IMG/VR virus record: IMGVR_UViG_2534682227_000016
Strand: one strand, 5' to 3'
DNA: 5,275 nt
Source of the DNA: a virus
Taxonomy: Duplodnaviria; Heunggongvirae; Uroviricota; Caudoviricetes
The notes beneath the pieces are model-generated. The model had not been told where the DNA came from. It ran no database searches and saw only the letters and a program-made list of their open reading frames with translations. Below are positions 1-5,275 of this stretch, in pieces. The position numbers and the translations under genes were made by a program. Position 1 is the stretch's first letter. The number at the start of each line of letters is the position of its first letter.

Positions 1-2
1 CG

Positions 3-359
3 GCAAAACGGGATGTGGGGACAGGGGAAAATCAGATACCGGACATGGCCTCTTTTGCCAGTGGTAATGGATGGATGAAATTACCCAACGGGAAAATCCT
101 GCAATATGGTCGTGGTGCGGTTACGCCGACATTATCGACGCAAACAATGAGAATTACATTCAGCATCCCTTTCCCCAAAAAAGCGGACTGCGCCATGCTT
201 ACTCATTCTGGTGATGGCGGTGCGCCTTTAGGCGCTGGGCGAGGGTTCGTGATGACTGCAGAAGGCCCAACGTTAACCGGCTTTAATTCTGCTTACAGAA
301 CGTCATCAACCAGCGACACGGTATCGATGAATTACAGTTGGTGGGCTGTTGGTGAGTAA
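3..359 (+). CDS. Phage tail fibre protein, C-terminal variable (receptor-binding) segment; 5'-partial, reading frame open to the window edge
   Basis: The frame of ORF 15..359 has no stop back to position 3, so the gene enters from upstream. TAA stop at 357-359. A Tfa-type chaperone gene follows 20 nt downstream, the usual stf-tfa arrangement. Gly/Ser/Thr-rich composition is typical of fibre tips. Lies inside the Pin-invertible segment. Confidence 0.65.
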   Translation, partial: AKRDVGTGENQIPDMASFASGNGWMKLPNGKILQYGRGAVTPTLSTQTMRITFSIPFPKKADCAMLTHSGDGGAPLGAGRGFVMTAEGPTLTGFNSAYRTSSTSDTVSMNYSWWAVGE

Positions 360-379
360 TTTTATTCAGGGTGATTTAT

Positions 380-823
380 ATGGACGAATATGTTTATAGC
401 GCAAGGCATAATGCTTTTTTCCCTGTGGATATGATTGATAAATATAAATCAGAGGGATGGGATTTATCAGACGCTAAGGAAGTAAATCAAAATATTATCA
501 GTGAGTTTATGGCTGAACCGCCACAAGGAAAAATCCGTATTGCCGGAGATGATGGGCTGCCTGCGTGGGCAGATATTCCTCCACCCACGCATGAAGAGCT
601 TATTGAAATTACTGAATCAGAAAGACAGCTACTAATTAACCAGGCCAACGAATACATGAACAGTAAGCAATGGCCCGGTAAAGCGGCTATTGGTCGTCTG
701 AAAGGTGACGAACTGACGCAATATAATTTGTGGCTGGATTATCTGGACGCACTGGAGCTGGTCGATACTTCCGGTGCGCCAGATATTGAATGGCCTACGC
801 CTCCGGCAGTTCAGGCCAGATGA
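380..823 (+). CDS. Tail fibre assembly protein (Tfa chaperone family)
   Basis: ATG at 380 is preceded by AGGGTGA (366-374) with a 5-nt spacer; the ORF-track GTG at 371 is a less likely start. C-terminus ...DTSGAPDIEWPTPP matches the conserved Tfa C-terminal motif (DTS-x-APD-x-x-WP). Sits directly downstream of the tail-fibre cassette. Confidence 0.7.
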   Translation: MDEYVYSARHNAFFPVDMIDKYKSEGWDLSDAKEVNQNIISEFMAEPPQGKIRIAGDDGLPAWADIPPPTHEELIEITESERQLLINQANEYMNSKQWPGKAAIGRLKGDELTQYNLWLDYLDALELVDTSGAPDIEWPTPPAVQAR

Positions 824-1388
824 CATCCGGCGCGGTGCTGGTATCTGTTGCCGTCACCGCGTCAATGTAATCCAGCACGGCGTTAAGTCGGGTTGTTTCT
901 GCCTGAGTCAGTTTCCGTCCGGCCTGTAACTTCAGCTGAATCAGACTAATGGAAGCCATTGCTGCATCAATCAGTGATTGGCGCTGTGCTTCTGCCGCGT
1001 CTACTGCGGCACTGTGTTGTGCCTCAGTGTCTGTCACCCATTTCTCACCATCCCATTTATCGTATGGCGTTAACGGTGAAATCGTGACATAACCGTCTTT
1101 GATGGCACCGATATAATCCACTGTAACAGCTGCGCCATTTTCGATTGAGTAAACAGTCTCATTGCGATGGTCTTCTTCATGGCTCCATCCCTTACCTGTA
1201 AATACTGCCACTCTTCCCGGAATGTTTTCGCCAGGGTCAATACCAGTGGAACAGGCGGGCATACTTACGCCAGTATTAATATATTCATCAGACCAGCCCG
1301 TATACTCAGATGTTTCAGCATCATAATAAAAACAACGCATATCGCCCGGCACTGTAGCCAGCCCATTTTCATCAAAAACAGGTTTCAT
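795..1388 (-). CDS. Tail fibre assembly protein (Tfa family), partner of the opposed cassette
   Basis: 197 aa. ATG at 1388-1386 is preceded by GGTGAGGG with a 7-nt spacer. C-terminus ...DTSTAPDVIWPELPEA carries the same Tfa motif. Its start overlaps the stop of the upstream - strand fibre segment (TAATG, 1386-1390), suggesting translational coupling. 3' end overlaps the + strand tfa by 29 bp. Confidence 0.75.
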   Translation of the reverse strand: MKPVFDENGLATVPGDMRCFYYDAETSEYTGWSDEYINTGVSMPACSTGIDPGENIPGRVAVFTGKGWSHEEDHRNETVYSIENGAAVTVDYIGAIKDGYVTISPLTPYDKWDGEKWVTDTEAQHSAAVDAAEAQRQSLIDAAMASISLIQLKLQAGRKLTQAETTRLNAVLDYIDAVTATDTSTAPDVIWPELPEA

Positions 1389-1885
1389 TATTTAGCCCTC
1401 ACCAGAAAGTTAAATGCAATATTTCGCGGTCTGACTGCAACAAAATTCACACCATCACCCACAGAGTTACTGGTGAAATTAAATCGTGAAAATCCTGGCT
1501 GATTTCCGGCGATGCCATCATGAAAGTTAATTGCGTGTCCCGCACCTTCGCCTATATTCCCGGCAAACTGAGAAAAGTTTGTAGCTGCCTGCCAGCTTAA
1601 TAATTCGCGACCACCGTCTGCACCTCGCCCGTCATCCCAGATACGAATGAAATCACCGCGGGCTTCAGGTAATACCAGCGAAGGAAACACTTTCGCCAGC
1701 ACAGGATAATCAGTGGCAGAGAATTTCGCGCCGTTGAACTTCAAAAACACCATACAGGACCAGCTGTCGATTACAGTATTTGGCATTGCAGCGGACGGCC
1801 AGAAGAACGGAACGCCAATAGCTGGAGCACCTTCTCCCAAACCAACGTTTATGAAAATGCAGAAATAACGAGCAAATGGCATCAT
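1388..1885 (-). CDS. Alternative tail fibre C-terminal variable segment (silent, start-less cassette of the invertible segment)
   Basis: 165-aa ORF with Gly/Asn/Phe-rich fibre-tip composition, immediately followed by its own tfa. Its first ~18 codons span the crossover site at 1832-1857, so the real coding unit probably begins at the crossover and is only expressed after inversion fuses it to the constant 5' part upstream of the window. The M at 1885 is probably not a genuine start. Confidence 0.6.
   Translation of the reverse strand: MMPFARYFCIFINVGLGEGAPAIGVPFFWPSAAMPNTVIDSWSCMVFLKFNGAKFSATDYPVLAKVFPSLVLPEARGDFIRIWDDGRGADGGRELLSWQAATNFSQFAGNIGEGAGHAINFHDGIAGNQPGFSRFNFTSNSVGDGVNFVAVRPRNIAFNFLVRAK
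1832..1857. other. Site-specific inversion crossover site (pix/gix/hix type), right boundary of the invertible segment
   Basis: TTCTCCCAAACCAACGTTTATGAAAA is a 26-bp site with two imperfectly symmetric 12-bp halves around a central AA. It resembles the gix/hix sites as I recall them (TT-TCC-AAACC-..-GTTT-...-GAA). It lies ~55 bp upstream of pin, inside the 5' end of the - strand fibre cassette, as expected for a Gin/Pin system. Confidence 0.6.
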
Positions 1886-1911
1886 TCCTGCTTTTGTCAG
1901 GGAGATCTACC

Positions 1912-2466
1912 ATGCTTATTGGCTATGTACGTGTGTCAACAAATGACCAGAACACAGATCTACAACGTAATGCGCTGAACTGTGCAGGATGCGAGCTGAT
2001 TTTTGAAGACAAGATAAGCGGTACAAAGTCCGAAAGGCCGGGACTGAAAAAACTGCTCAGGACATTATCGGCAGGTGACACTCTGGTTGTCTGGAAACTG
2101 GATCGGCTGGGGCGCAGTATGCGGCATCTGGTCATTCTGGTTGAGGAGTTGCGCGAACGTGGCGTTAATTTTCGCAGCCTGACGGATGCTATTGATACCA
2201 GTACCCCAATGGGGCGCTTTTTCTTTCATGTGATGGGGGCCCTGGCTGAAATGGAACGAGAACTGATTGTTGAACGAACAAAAGCTGGACTGGAAGCTGC
2301 TCGCGCACAGGGACGAATTGGTGGACGTCGTCCCAAACTTACACCAGAACAATGGGCGCAGGCCGGACGATTAATTGCAGCAGGAATTCCTCGCCAGAAG
2401 GTAGCGATCATCTATGATGTTGGTGTATCGACACTGTATAAGAAGTTTCCGGCCGGAGATAAATGA
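1912..2466 (+). CDS. pin: Serine DNA invertase Pin (Hin/Gin/Cin/Pin family site-specific recombinase)
   Basis: 184 aa beginning MLIGYVRVSTNDQNTDLQRNAL..., with the catalytic Ser in RVSTNDQ and a C-terminal HTH (...GIPRQKVAIIYDVGVSTLYKKF). Near-identical to my recollection of e14 PinE. AGGGAG at 1899-1904 is 7 nt upstream of the ATG at 1912; the ORF-track start at 1876 is an in-frame upstream ATG without an SD. Confidence 0.95.
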   Translation: MLIGYVRVSTNDQNTDLQRNALNCAGCELIFEDKISGTKSERPGLKKLLRTLSAGDTLVVWKLDRLGRSMRHLVILVEELRERGVNFRSLTDAIDTSTPMGRFFFHVMGALAEMERELIVERTKAGLEAARAQGRIGGRRPKLTPEQWAQAGRLIAAGIPRQKVAIIYDVGVSTLYKKFPAGDK

Positions 2467-2469
2467 AAC

Positions 2470-2510
2470 CGTAGCACGTCGTATGCAAGATCGTGCTGCG
2501 GTTTATGCTT
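2470..2510 (+). terminator. Possible intrinsic terminator between convergent pin and the GIY-YIG gene
   Basis: Inverted repeat CGTAGCACG (2470-2478) / CGTGCTGCG (2492-2500) gives a ~9-bp stem (one G-T wobble) with a 13-nt loop, followed by GTTTATGCTT. The U-tract is weak. Confidence 0.25.
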
Positions 2511-2523
2511 ACCACTTGAAGAT

Positions 2524-3393
<870 letters not shown>

Positions 3394-3476
3394 CTAACCC
3401 TTTGAATTTACATAGCGCAAAAAGATACCTTTCCTCATAATGTGAGCTAATTTTATGTTTCGTTTGATGATCGGGT

Positions 3477-3538
3477 CGGTCTCGAAAACCGGAGTAGGGG
3501 CAACTCTACCGGGGGTTCAAATCCCCCTCTCTCCGCCA
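3477..3538 (+). other. 3' fragment (~62 nt) of a tRNA-Ser(CGA) gene; attachment-site (attR-type) scar, not an intact tRNA
   Basis: CGGTCTCGAAAACCGG (anticodon stem-loop, U33-CGA-A37), GAGTAGGGGCAACTCTAC (long class-II variable arm), GGGGGTTCAAATCCCCC (T-arm), TCTCTCC-G-CCA (3' acceptor strand and CCA). The D-arm and 5' acceptor strand are absent; identity to the tRNA begins at 3477. Matches my recollection of E. coli serU. Confidence 0.8.
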
Positions 3539-4120
3539 CTTTATCAATGACTTATCTCCCGACTTCCCGTCTTGCTTTTCCTAAACAGAACAATCGTAGA
3601 ATATTCTTGAAGGGTTAGATCGTCACTGTTTTCTGTTCGATACTGTGACATTCAGCACTTGATTCGCTATGGATCTGACAGGAAGGTTTTGAGCGAAAAT
3701 CTGCAGTTATTCAGTCGTTTTCTTATCGGTCACCATTATTCTTTTAGACATTGATCCTACAAAGCTGCCGCAAAGTTGGTGGTGGGAACTGAAGTTGCGT
3801 AGAGAAGGGGTCAATACCCGGAGGCAAACATGGGCTGGCAAAAGTGTAGCGGTATTAGGCGCAGCTATTTAGCCTAGTTATGTTTTATGAAAACTTGATA
3901 TCATATAAGTGTCTTACTTATTGGCTGTAAATAAGTTTTTCCTAAGGAATTGTTTCTTGAGTATCATTTGTAACTGTAACGGAATTTATAATCCTTTGCT
4001 TTATTGTTACGGTATTTTTTATCACACCCTATTTTTAGTGGTTTTTTATACTGAAGTTTGGCAAAGTGAACTTTATATACATATACTTCATCCTGGTTTC
4101 AGTTAAATTGGGGGGATGAT

Positions 4121-4864
4121 ATGGCAACTACATGTTCAGTTATATTGATTTTGGAGTCCTTTGATGTTTATTTCGGAAAAGAGAGTGTGTTTCTGGAGAG
4201 AGGTTCATCTGTACTTGTCGACTCTAGCTCTAGAGATTTTTTCCTGACATATCCTGAAAGAGTGATAGTGGCGGATTTTGGCGCTGAGTTTATTAGTCGC
4301 TATTTGAAAGCTAATAACTTAAGGGATATTTCTGATTGTAGGGAATATCCATCTTATTTAAAAATAAACTTTGCTGACTTCAGTTTAATTAAAGGATTAA
4401 TTAGTTGGGCTAATCACTGTGCTGAATACATAGAAATTTTTGATGAGTCTATTGCTTTTACATGTCTCTCTGCATTTTCTTCTGAAAAACAATTTGGAGT
4501 ATTTCTGTTTGGATGTTTGAAAAGCACAGGGGCTAAAGTTAAAACGATTATTCATACGGATTTATCTGCACCATGGCGTCTTAAGGATATATCATCAAGA
4601 TTATATCTCAGCGAAAGTTTACTAAAGAGGAAATTGAAAGAAGAGGGGGTATCATTCAGTAAGATCATACTTGATGAGAGGATGCAAATGGCTGAATATT
4701 TACTCAGCACTCGTTGTTATCCTATTAGTAAAGTAGCTAAGGTCTGTGGTTATGCCAGTGTCTCATACTTTACTTATGTATTTAGACGTTATTTTGGTGT
4801 TTCTCCAAGTCAATACTCTCAGAGGAGTTCAGAAAGTAAAATTCTTACTCACCAGGGAATCTGA
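4121..4864 (+). CDS. AraC/XylS-family transcriptional regulator (AppY/YdeO/EnvY-like)
   Basis: 247 aa. The C-terminal AraC-type double HTH (...WRLKDISSRLYLSESLLKRKLKEEGVSFSKIILDERMQMAEYLL...KVAKVCGYASVSYFTYVFRRYFGVSPSQY) closely parallels the YdeO/AppY pattern W.LKDI...Y.SESLLKK.LK.E...F..I.LD.RM..A..L...CGY.S.SYF...F...YG.(S/T)P. G-run SD at 4110-4115 is 5 nt before the ATG. Gene and upstream region are visibly AT-rich. Confidence 0.85.
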   Translation: MATTCSVILILESFDVYFGKESVFLERGSSVLVDSSSRDFFLTYPERVIVADFGAEFISRYLKANNLRDISDCREYPSYLKINFADFSLIKGLISWANHCAEYIEIFDESIAFTCLSAFSSEKQFGVFLFGCLKSTGAKVKTIIHTDLSAPWRLKDISSRLYLSESLLKRKLKEEGVSFSKIILDERMQMAEYLLSTRCYPISKVAKVCGYASVSYFTYVFRRYFGVSPSQYSQRSSESKILTHQGI

Positions 4865-4867
4865 TCA

Positions 4868-5275
4868 TTGTTCTTGCCCCCTTATTTCCAGACAGGGGGG
4901 GTATCTTAAGTTAACGTTACCCGCTGACGTCGATATTCTCGCGGAGAGCGATAACCCAACGCACTGTGCGGATGGTTTTCATTGTAATGTTCGATCGCCA
5001 CTGCAAGATTATGCAATGCCGTTCTTACATTCGGTTTCGGCATGAACGCGATGTAGTCTTCCTTCATCGTTTTCACGAACCTTTCTGCAATTCCATTACT
5101 CTGAGGACTGCTGATTGCCGTTGTGCAGGGCTCCAGATTCAACTCTCTGGCGAACTGCCGTGTTTCATGCGCTCTATACGCTGAACCGTTATCTGAACCG
5201 CCCCGGGTTTCCTGGAGAGTGTTTTATCTGTGAACTCAGGCTGCCAGATCATCGTTTCCGATGGAAGCATAATAA
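4868..5275 (-). mobile_element. IS3-family (IS2-like) insertion sequence, terminal ~400 bp; continues past the window end
   Basis: Terminal sequence TTGCCCCCTTATTTCCAGACA...TATCTTAAG... resembles the IS2 end as I recall it (TGGATTTGCCCCTATATTTCCAGACA...). The - strand encodes an IS2 OrfB-like C-terminus with the DDE-region motif SDNGS and ...[14 protein letters not shown].... The element boundary is approximate (4866-4870). Confidence 0.75.
4906..5223 (-). pseudogene. IS2-like transposase OrfB, C-terminal region; reading frame interrupted upstream
   Basis: The frame reading ...[50 protein letters not shown]...[22 protein letters not shown] is open from 5223 to the stop at 4906-4908 but hits an in-frame TAA at 5224-5226. 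The upstream transposase-like reading (...[16 protein letters not shown]...) is in the -1 frame, implying a 1-nt indel near the CCCCGGG run at 5201-5207. Cannot tell a real pseudogene from a sequencing or assembly error. Confidence 0.5.

Follow-up and report, generated by a model that had tools for sequence, protein, structure and literature searches.

The window, as the whole analysed stretch of 5,275 nt is called here (IMG/VR record IMGVR_UViG_2534682227_000016), was 100 % identical throughout to chromosomes of E. coli O157:H7, and at least 144 complete genomes covered at least 80 % of it in one place. It is the thrW locus of E. coli O157:H7, within the prophage remnant Sp1/CP-933H, and EDL933 was among the genomes listed with the element. 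The features of the window, placed in part with the annotation of the identical locus in strain ATCC 43890 (L001), were as follows.

1–359, plus strand: 3' end of a tail-fibre gene (gp53-like domain), the window beginning inside the gene (RefSeq annotation, L001 19649–20359; ORF list)
380–823, plus strand: tail fibre assembly gene (annotation, L001 20380–20823)
795–1388, minus strand: alternative tail fibre assembly gene (annotation, ORFs)
1388–1849, minus strand: alternative tail-fibre C-terminus, annotated as a pseudogene (annotation, ORFs)
1912–2466, plus strand: pinE serine invertase (annotation; Pfam Resolvase, 8e-52, and HTH_7)
2524–3297, minus strand: gene with a LEM-3-like GIY-YIG nuclease domain (annotation; Pfam PF22945, 3e-14)
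3298–3476, no strand assigned: P arm (phage side) of the attR of a serU-targeting e14/SfV-like phage (collinearity with strain MB15; flank comparison)
3477–3538, plus strand: serU nt 29–90, fossil att core and tRNA 3' end (sequence match)
3539–3816, plus strand: captured native chromosome, the 278 bp directly downstream of serU (serU–yodB spacer; 96–99 % identity to native loci)
3817–3872, plus strand: last 56 bp of IS630 including the right terminal repeat, internally truncated (98 % to the annotated IS630 3' end, L012 1501–1556)
4058–4087: promoter-like site near patE, outside the serU-derived part
4121–4864, plus strand: AraC-family regulator, taken as patE of CP-933H (annotation; Pfam HTH_AraC/HTH_18)
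4906–5195, minus strand: IS3-family transposase remnant (rve_3), continuing past the IS1203 insertion (annotation, Pfam)
5196–5275, minus strand: end of an IS1203 copy inserted in the IS3 remnant (IS1203 transposase at L001 25236–26449)

The two tail fibre assembly genes at 380–823 (plus) and 795–1388 (minus) are convergent and overlap by 29 bp. The region 795–1849, with its alternative tail-fibre C-termini beside pinE, is an invertible host-range segment. No inverted crossover repeats for pin were found in window positions 1–2600 at the settings used, so the left crossover site probably lies upstream of position 1. A match to the Rfam model CssrB (a Shigella sRNA) at 2444–2500 stayed below threshold (32.7 bits, gathering score 76). 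It spans no more of the model than the 3' hairpin and comes directly behind the stop codon of pinE; a terminator hairpin of that gene is the probable explanation. Near the right end, the IS1203 copy inside the IS3-family remnant is 1.3 kb long (L001 25196–26503) and polymorphic among O157 strains: a minority of the O157 genomes matched the window through 5275 and many matched 1–5195 only. The uninterrupted IS3 remnant in L004 served as comparison for this insertion.

The earlier note had read 3477–3538 as the 3' part of a tRNA-Ser(CGA) gene, and both the fragment and its coordinates proved exact. The 90-nt serU sequence used as query (tRNA-Ser, anticodon CGA) was 100 % identical to annotated tRNA-Ser in E. 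coli genomes and had a full-length copy in 5420 of the 5426 genomes searched. Positions 3477–3538 on the plus strand (CGGTCTCGAAAACCGGAGTAGGGGCAACTCTACCGGGGGTTCAAATCCCCCTCTCTCCGCCA) matched nt 29–90 of this gene at 62 of 62 bases (an offset of 28 in the mapping). The match begins at base two of the anticodon stem, takes in the CGA anticodon loop, the variable arm and the T arm, and ends with CCA; identity to the 3' end of the intact gene is therefore complete. The pattern occurred once in the window, with no match in 200 dinucleotide shuffles when up to three mismatches were permitted. The 28 nt upstream of 3477 agreed with serU nt 1–28 at 10 of 28 positions, in line with the earlier statement that no intact 5' half is present. 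ARAGORN called no tRNA in the window, and the match of the fragment in Rfam was a partial tRNA-clan match below threshold (27.5 bits against a gathering score of 47). On these three grounds the fragment fails as a functional tRNA-Ser; it lacks a full cloverleaf, for which two acceptor-stem strands and a D arm are needed, and is without tRNA function. A terminator scan around the fragment returned no candidate.

At the left edge of the fragment (3473–3476), the O157 copy reads ...GATCGGGT directly before CGGT, and most other copies with the e14-type arm read ...GATTGGAC there, the comparison set being L003, L004, L009 and most IMG/VR copies. Identity with serU extends over 66 nt in most of these other copies, compared with 62 in the O157 copy. 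The differing edge bases indicate that the O157 arm has diverged at the border of the att identity block.

The boundaries of the element that now holds the fragment were given by a different tRNA gene. In strain ATCC 43890 the gene order runs from proB, proA and intact thrW through a truncated integrase, cI, cro, cII and replication-gene fragments to the tail fibre gene, two tail fibre assembly genes, a partial tail fibre gene, pinE, the LEM-3-like GIY-YIG gene and the tRNA-Ser fragment, and then on to the AraC-family regulator, the IS3-family remnant split by IS1203 and a P4-like integrase with its island. ARAGORN found thrW as the sole tRNA in this 45-kb locus. The intact thrW lies 8.4 kb left of the fragment with the truncated thrW-type integrase beside it, and core chromosome (proBA, phoE) lies left of thrW. 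A copy of the last 47 nt of thrW is present at L001 26932–26978, just before the P4-like integrase and 3.4 kb right of the fragment, 1.3 kb of this distance being IS1203; a shorter thrW-end repeat is present at L001 39858–39881. The thrW repeats at both sites show that two elements lie in tandem at thrW and that the fragment is inside the first, so it is not a boundary marker of the present element. In strain Sakai, Sp1 and Sp2 are located at thrW and a different prophage, Sp14, at serU (PMC8190617).

Two side observations concern these neighbouring parts. Five tandem iteron-like repeats of 18–23 nt (TATCCCTCAAAACGAGGG type) are found at L001 18766–18873 in a frameshifted replication gene of the Sp1 remnant and are presumably a lambdoid origin. 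The adjoining P4-like (Sp2-like) element at the second thrW repeat (L001 27140–39881) carries an ABC-three-component system and an AAA ATPase beside its integrase, likely as defence cargo.

The DNA right of the fragment is native for 278 bp and is then followed by the truncated IS630, patE, the IS3 remnant, the thrW repeat and the P4-like element. The span 3477–3816 matched native serU and its downstream DNA at 96–97 % in essentially every E. coli, K-12 included, and the native match ends at 3816; in K-12 the matching DNA is the spacer that separates serU from the 3' end of yodB. For the spacer by itself (3539–3816), identity was 96–97 % to K-12 and most E. coli native loci and 99.1 % to strain 3347558. 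Of the two options that the earlier note gave for the DNA right of 3538, native chromosome or a second island, the first is thus upheld for 278 bp and fails beyond them. At 3816/3817 the sequence GAAGGGGTCAATA meets CCCGGAGG. This joint falls inside IS630, 56 bp from its end and not at the IS terminus, and because the IS630 copy is cut internally the joint is illegitimate and not a transposition end. Flanking homology at the joint appears to be absent, from our own reading of the two parental sequences. The right flank also differs from the P' arm of the MB15 prophage (30 % identity over 3539–3816), which shows that the fragment junction is not an attP.

A true attR of the same kind was found in other strains. 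A chimeric query, in which the left flank of the window, the fragment and the 278 bp were joined to the K-12 continuation into yodB, recovered four genomes with exactly this arrangement, and a continuation of the junction into yodB was found only in these 4 of the 5426 genomes. In one of them, MB15, intact serU (1,925,955–1,926,044) is followed by three hypothetical genes and then a tyrosine integrase. The three hypothetical genes (L010 4183–6434) occupy an attL-side cargo slot between serU and the integrase of this serU-integrated e14-like phage. The MB15 prophage is complete, about 39 kb long and e14/SfV-like, with ymfL, ymfR, ymfQ, HK97-type head genes and sheath, tube and baseplate tail genes; its right part holds an invertible tail-fibre segment, pinE and the GIY-YIG gene, and at its right end a 66-nt serU repeat runs directly into yodB. 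Window positions 1831–3816 are collinear with this right end at 96 % identity, from which it follows that the DNA left of the fragment in the window is genuine arm sequence from an e14-like phage that targets serU, and that the fragment marks a genuine attR junction. In the genome of the window this junction is no longer in use as attR.

Strain 138 carries a relative of the MB15 prophage at the other site. Its intact 39.5-kb e14/SfV-like prophage is bounded by thrW and the 47-nt repeat, and the serU fragment with the cassette described below lies 2.1 kb inside the thrW attR at the right end. The strain 138 and MB15 prophages are collinear, most of the genome falling in blocks of 86–99 % identity (mostly 94–99 %), and these relatives carry ymfL, ymfQ, ymfR, tfaE and pinE together with sheath, tube and baseplate tail genes. 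Their integrases are of different kinds: the MB15 serU-type enzyme matched the thrW-type enzyme at 31 % over 58 aa and was otherwise unrelated. Sp1 of O157 has in common with strain 138 the thrW-side integrase fragment, since its truncated left-end integrase is 99.65 % identical at the DNA level to the strain 138 thrW integrase region, and the part from the tail fibre to attR; it differs in its immunity/replication module and has lost the structural genes.

Several earlier proposals can be judged against these loci. The phage side was expected left of the fragment, and pinE, the GIY-YIG gene and an e14/SfV-like arm are indeed there, with the same junction serving as a true attR in MB15. The e14-like order of invertible tail-fibre segment, pin, cargo and att duplicate, together with e14-homologous genes, was likewise found, the GIY-YIG gene occupying the cargo position. 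An e14-like tail and invertase module with another integration specificity was also borne out, with relatives at serU (MB15) and at thrW (strain 138 and O157) and no integration at icd encountered among them. As to an e14-like attR at a tRNA-Ser gene, the junction and the type of phage were correctly recognized, but the fragment is a relic and the present site and boundary belong to thrW. An intact tRNA-Ser gene with an integrase at the other end of the element, as predicted, was seen about 39 kb to the left in MB15 and not in this genome, where only thrW and a truncated thrW-type integrase are found and no tRNA-Ser occurs within 20 kb left of the fragment; the lack of such a pair at prophage distance is what the earlier note had itself named as speaking against its reading.

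The fragment is the left end of a cassette of about 1.87 kb that consists of the serU fragment, the 278 bp of host DNA, the truncated IS630, patE and the IS3 remnant. The shared block extends from window position 3476 to 5195 and on into the IS3 remnant, about 1868 bp in all (L004 20279–22144), its homology with lambda-like phages reaching L004 22144 and L006 10869, and its right boundary therefore falls within the IS3-family remnant. The AraC-family gene at 4121–4864 is taken to be patE because it is the sole AraC-like gene in the thrW-bounded element and because CP-933H, according to two papers, encodes the AraC-like acid-resistance activator PatE (PMC3681947, PMC11879457); the assignment thus derives from position and from secondary citations. 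No evidence was seen of a role of the fragment in cis in patE expression.

The cassette was 98.8–99.3 % identical in Escherichia phages ev099 and mEp332 and in a prophage of NCTC9104, and phage PhiR70_1 matched window positions 3476–4899 at 99.3 %; the phage records are regarded as virion-derived on the strength of their deposit as phage genomes. In ev099 and mEp332 it follows J, the tail fibre gene and the tail fibre assembly genes. Another 520 bp on, ev099 has the lambda attP core (GCTTTTTTATACTAA) with the phage's own int next to it, and then xis. The NCTC9104 prophage adjoins ybhB/bioA beside the bio operon (att-lambda) and matches ev099 up to the lambda attP core. The left flank of these lambda-like carriers differs from that of the window right up to the tRNA fragment, and at 98 % over 195 bp their left arm is the one found at the true attR of the lambda-like serU lysogen 3347558. 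In this strain a 40.8-kb lambda-like prophage lies between serU and a true attR at the native serU locus, with its integrase 27 bp from serU. Both kinds of left arm join the cassette at 3475–3477, no more than 2 nt from the first base of the tRNA identity block, as at true attR sites. The spacer haplotype is the same in both types of phage and is 3347558-like (99.1 %), not K-12/MB15-like (96 %). With its ends fixed, the cassette is carried by temperate phages that represent at least two architectures and three sites of integration.

The joint was present in 30 IMG/VR contigs, with the e14-like arm in 21, the lambda-like arm in eight and one odd case due to IS421, and the cassette was found in 428–644 of the 5426 E. 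coli genomes. The odd contig (L021) had been considered as a third type of left arm and a sign of repeated integrase-mediated exchange; this was rejected, as E. coli BE311 has an IS421 insertion in the serU fragment with the GIY-YIG gene still upstream. The IS421 (IS4-like) copy, at L045 18848–19960 in BE311 and also in strains F41 and K99S, leaves the last ~20 nt of the serU fragment beside the 278-bp spacer and so mimics a short att duplicate with a new arm. A patE copy without the serU part in strain E6 was likewise rejected as an ancestral state, being a secondary IS1 insertion or deletion. In E. coli O6:H16 strain 2014EL-1346-6 the cassette is joined to a truncated LysR gene beside paoD; the element there (L003 10072–19231) is rearranged, with two pinE genes, an Avs2 (AVAST type 2) defence gene and an inverted copy of thrW-arm sequence.

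Very probably, then, the fragment represents an attR that has become a fossil within a prophage at thrW, where it belongs to a shared cassette. This rests on what was observed: every segment was identified, the joints and the thrW boundaries were located, the cassette was seen at att-lambda as well as in lambda-like genomes of virion origin, and true serU lysogens were found for either left arm. That the fragment is instead the present right boundary of a prophage integrated to its left at a tRNA-Ser gene is scarcely credible. The layout of pin, cargo and tRNA 3' fragment with native tRNA-downstream DNA to the right does suggest it, as does the use of the same junction as attR in MB15 and three other genomes. 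However, thrW with its own type of integrase stands at the left end, the element ends 3.4 kb to the right in a thrW repeat, core genes and no tRNA-Ser are met within 20 kb to the left, and the native DNA stops after 278 bp at the truncated IS630; all of the at least 144 concordant complete genomes would have to be misassembled. A rearrangement confined to the O157 lineage, in which recombination between Sp14 at serU and the thrW prophage moved the serU attR region to thrW, is highly improbable. O157 genomes do have three serU-derived places (from counts of places per record), Sp14 lies at serU (PMC8190617), and long homologies are common to prophages. Against this, the same joints (the start of the serU fragment, the joint of the 278 bp with IS630 and the end of the IS3 remnant) recur at 99 % identity in lambda-like phages, NCTC9104, the O6:H16 strain and strain 138, so that the cassette is phage-borne and older than any O157-specific event; moreover, just 278 bp of the serU flank moved, and no chromosome arm.

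Independent capture, through imprecise excision, by lambda-like and e14-like serU phages of a chromosomal islet, with patE and the IS remnants once located 278 bp downstream of serU, would directly account for the authentic P arm that each phage type has against the serU fragment. It is nevertheless improbable, since intact serU followed by the 278 bp, the truncated IS630 and patE occurred in 0 of the 5426 complete E. coli genomes, and two independent illegitimate events would be unlikely to give the same right cassette boundary in the IS3 remnant of both phage types. The joint was also absent from GTDB species representatives in an exact-match scan, a result that is uninformative on other strains. 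We further regard as unlikely that the fragment is still active in attachment, serving as a secondary attB or within a working attP so that serU integrases move the cassette site-specifically. In its favour are the position of both arm junctions (3475–3477), no more than 2 nt from where the identity block begins, the retention of the whole block used by serU phages, and the serU phage carried by O157 (PMC8190617). On the other hand, no nested prophage split across the fossil site was seen and the apparent third arm was an IS421 insertion. Homologous exchange needs no more than the 340 bp of homology to native attR regions, the O157 copy departs from serU in the bases immediately 5' of the core, and the right flank is not the MB15 P' arm, so that it is no attP. 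There is a small chance that serU-specific integrases, of the MB15 type or the lambda-like type of 3347558 (Sp14 is also at serU), insert phages into resident prophages at the scar and that the nested prophages resolve by recombination. Were the scar usable in this manner, the patE cassette would hop between unrelated backbones, each keeping its own P arm, and there would be a site-specific route for the exchange of morons and a possible source of serU-to-thrW rearrangements in O157.

The fossil-attR reading suggests the following history. An e14/SfV-like temperate phage with a serU-specific integrase would once have integrated at serU, and its right junction would then have consisted of the phage arm, serU nt 29–90 and chromosomal DNA. 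This junction, with 278 bp of host spacer, may have been carried into a phage genome through a single illegitimate joint at 3816/3817 to a truncated IS630 beside the moron patE. The capture could have taken place by imprecise excision of the serU prophage, as in lambda bio, or by phage–prophage recombination, in either case with one illegitimate end beyond attR. An origin of the cassette by imprecise excision or illegitimate recombination appears rather likely. What a capture of this kind leaves behind was found: a hybrid of P arm and serU fragment inside a thrW-bounded prophage and in ev099, mEp332 and PhiR70_1, and contiguous host DNA (the 278-bp spacer, 96–99 %) with a novel illegitimate joint. 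The cassette would seem to have been captured once, as all copies agree in the joint of the 278 bp with IS630, in the right end and in the spacer haplotype; the 99.1 % similarity to one native haplotype could also reflect later gene conversion. No intermediate of the capture was found. Neither patE nor IS630 was present at the integrase end of the lambda-like serU lysogen 3347558, so this lysogen does not supply the phage-side breakpoint expected of a classical imprecise excision. Spread among backbones may have occurred by homologous recombination within the 340 bp of serU-fragment and spacer homology or by integrase action at the fossil core, either of which explains the authentic arm of each backbone. 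The cassette now lies close to the functional attachment site, on its inner side, in temperate phages that integrate elsewhere, the copy in the window being placed at the right end of Sp1/CP-933H at thrW. The primary product of an imprecise excision, expected to lack phage DNA from the opposite prophage end, no longer exists, and the present carriers have complete int/att modules of other specificities.

Specialised transducing phages such as lambda bio and lambda gal arise by imprecise excision. They resemble the cassette in their hybrid phage–bacterial att junction with contiguous, one-sided host DNA and in the non-homologous joint that closes the segment. Unlike a laboratory lysate variant, the cassette is natural, fixed and widespread (hundreds of genomes and several virion isolates), and the phages that bear it have since gained other int/att modules. 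Only 278 bp of non-coding host DNA survive, which indicates that the captured host DNA was not itself the selected cargo. The attR repeats of tRNA-integrating prophages (e14 at icd serves as a parallel, with lambdoid and P4-like elements at tRNA genes) are similarly built from a phage arm and the 3' part of the target, from anticodon stem to CCA, followed by native DNA; the fragment described here differs in lying neither at an element boundary nor at serU and in having its native DNA reduced to a 278-bp stub. The b-region of lambda is the classical position for accessory genes (morons), and the cassette of ev099 and mEp332, between the tail fibre assembly gene and attP/int, corresponds to it, but it also contains a foreign att scar and host spacer that record how the region was assembled. 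The class of mechanism (specialised-transduction-type capture, and morons beside attP), Sp1/CP-933H and patE are already known, and the window is part of a known element. A literature search, which matched words by their beginnings and in which 'serU' may, we assume, also have meant 'serum', found no description of the serU scar, of the captured spacer in CP-933H or of a cassette shared with lambda-like phages.

The main practical value of the finding lies in the calling of prophage boundaries. The boundary of Sp1/CP-933H is corrected to the thrW repeat in place of the tRNA-Ser fragment, and programs that equate every 3' fragment of a tRNA gene with an att site would split this element in the wrong place. 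The 340 bp of serU-locus homology within a thrW prophage are a potential recombination substrate with the serU locus. The cassette is common, at 99 % identity, to myovirus-type and lambda-type phages using three integration sites, and its attR scar, host DNA and non-homologous joint beside patE, a gene of acid resistance, provide a legible natural record of a route that is usually assumed for the accessory regions of phages.
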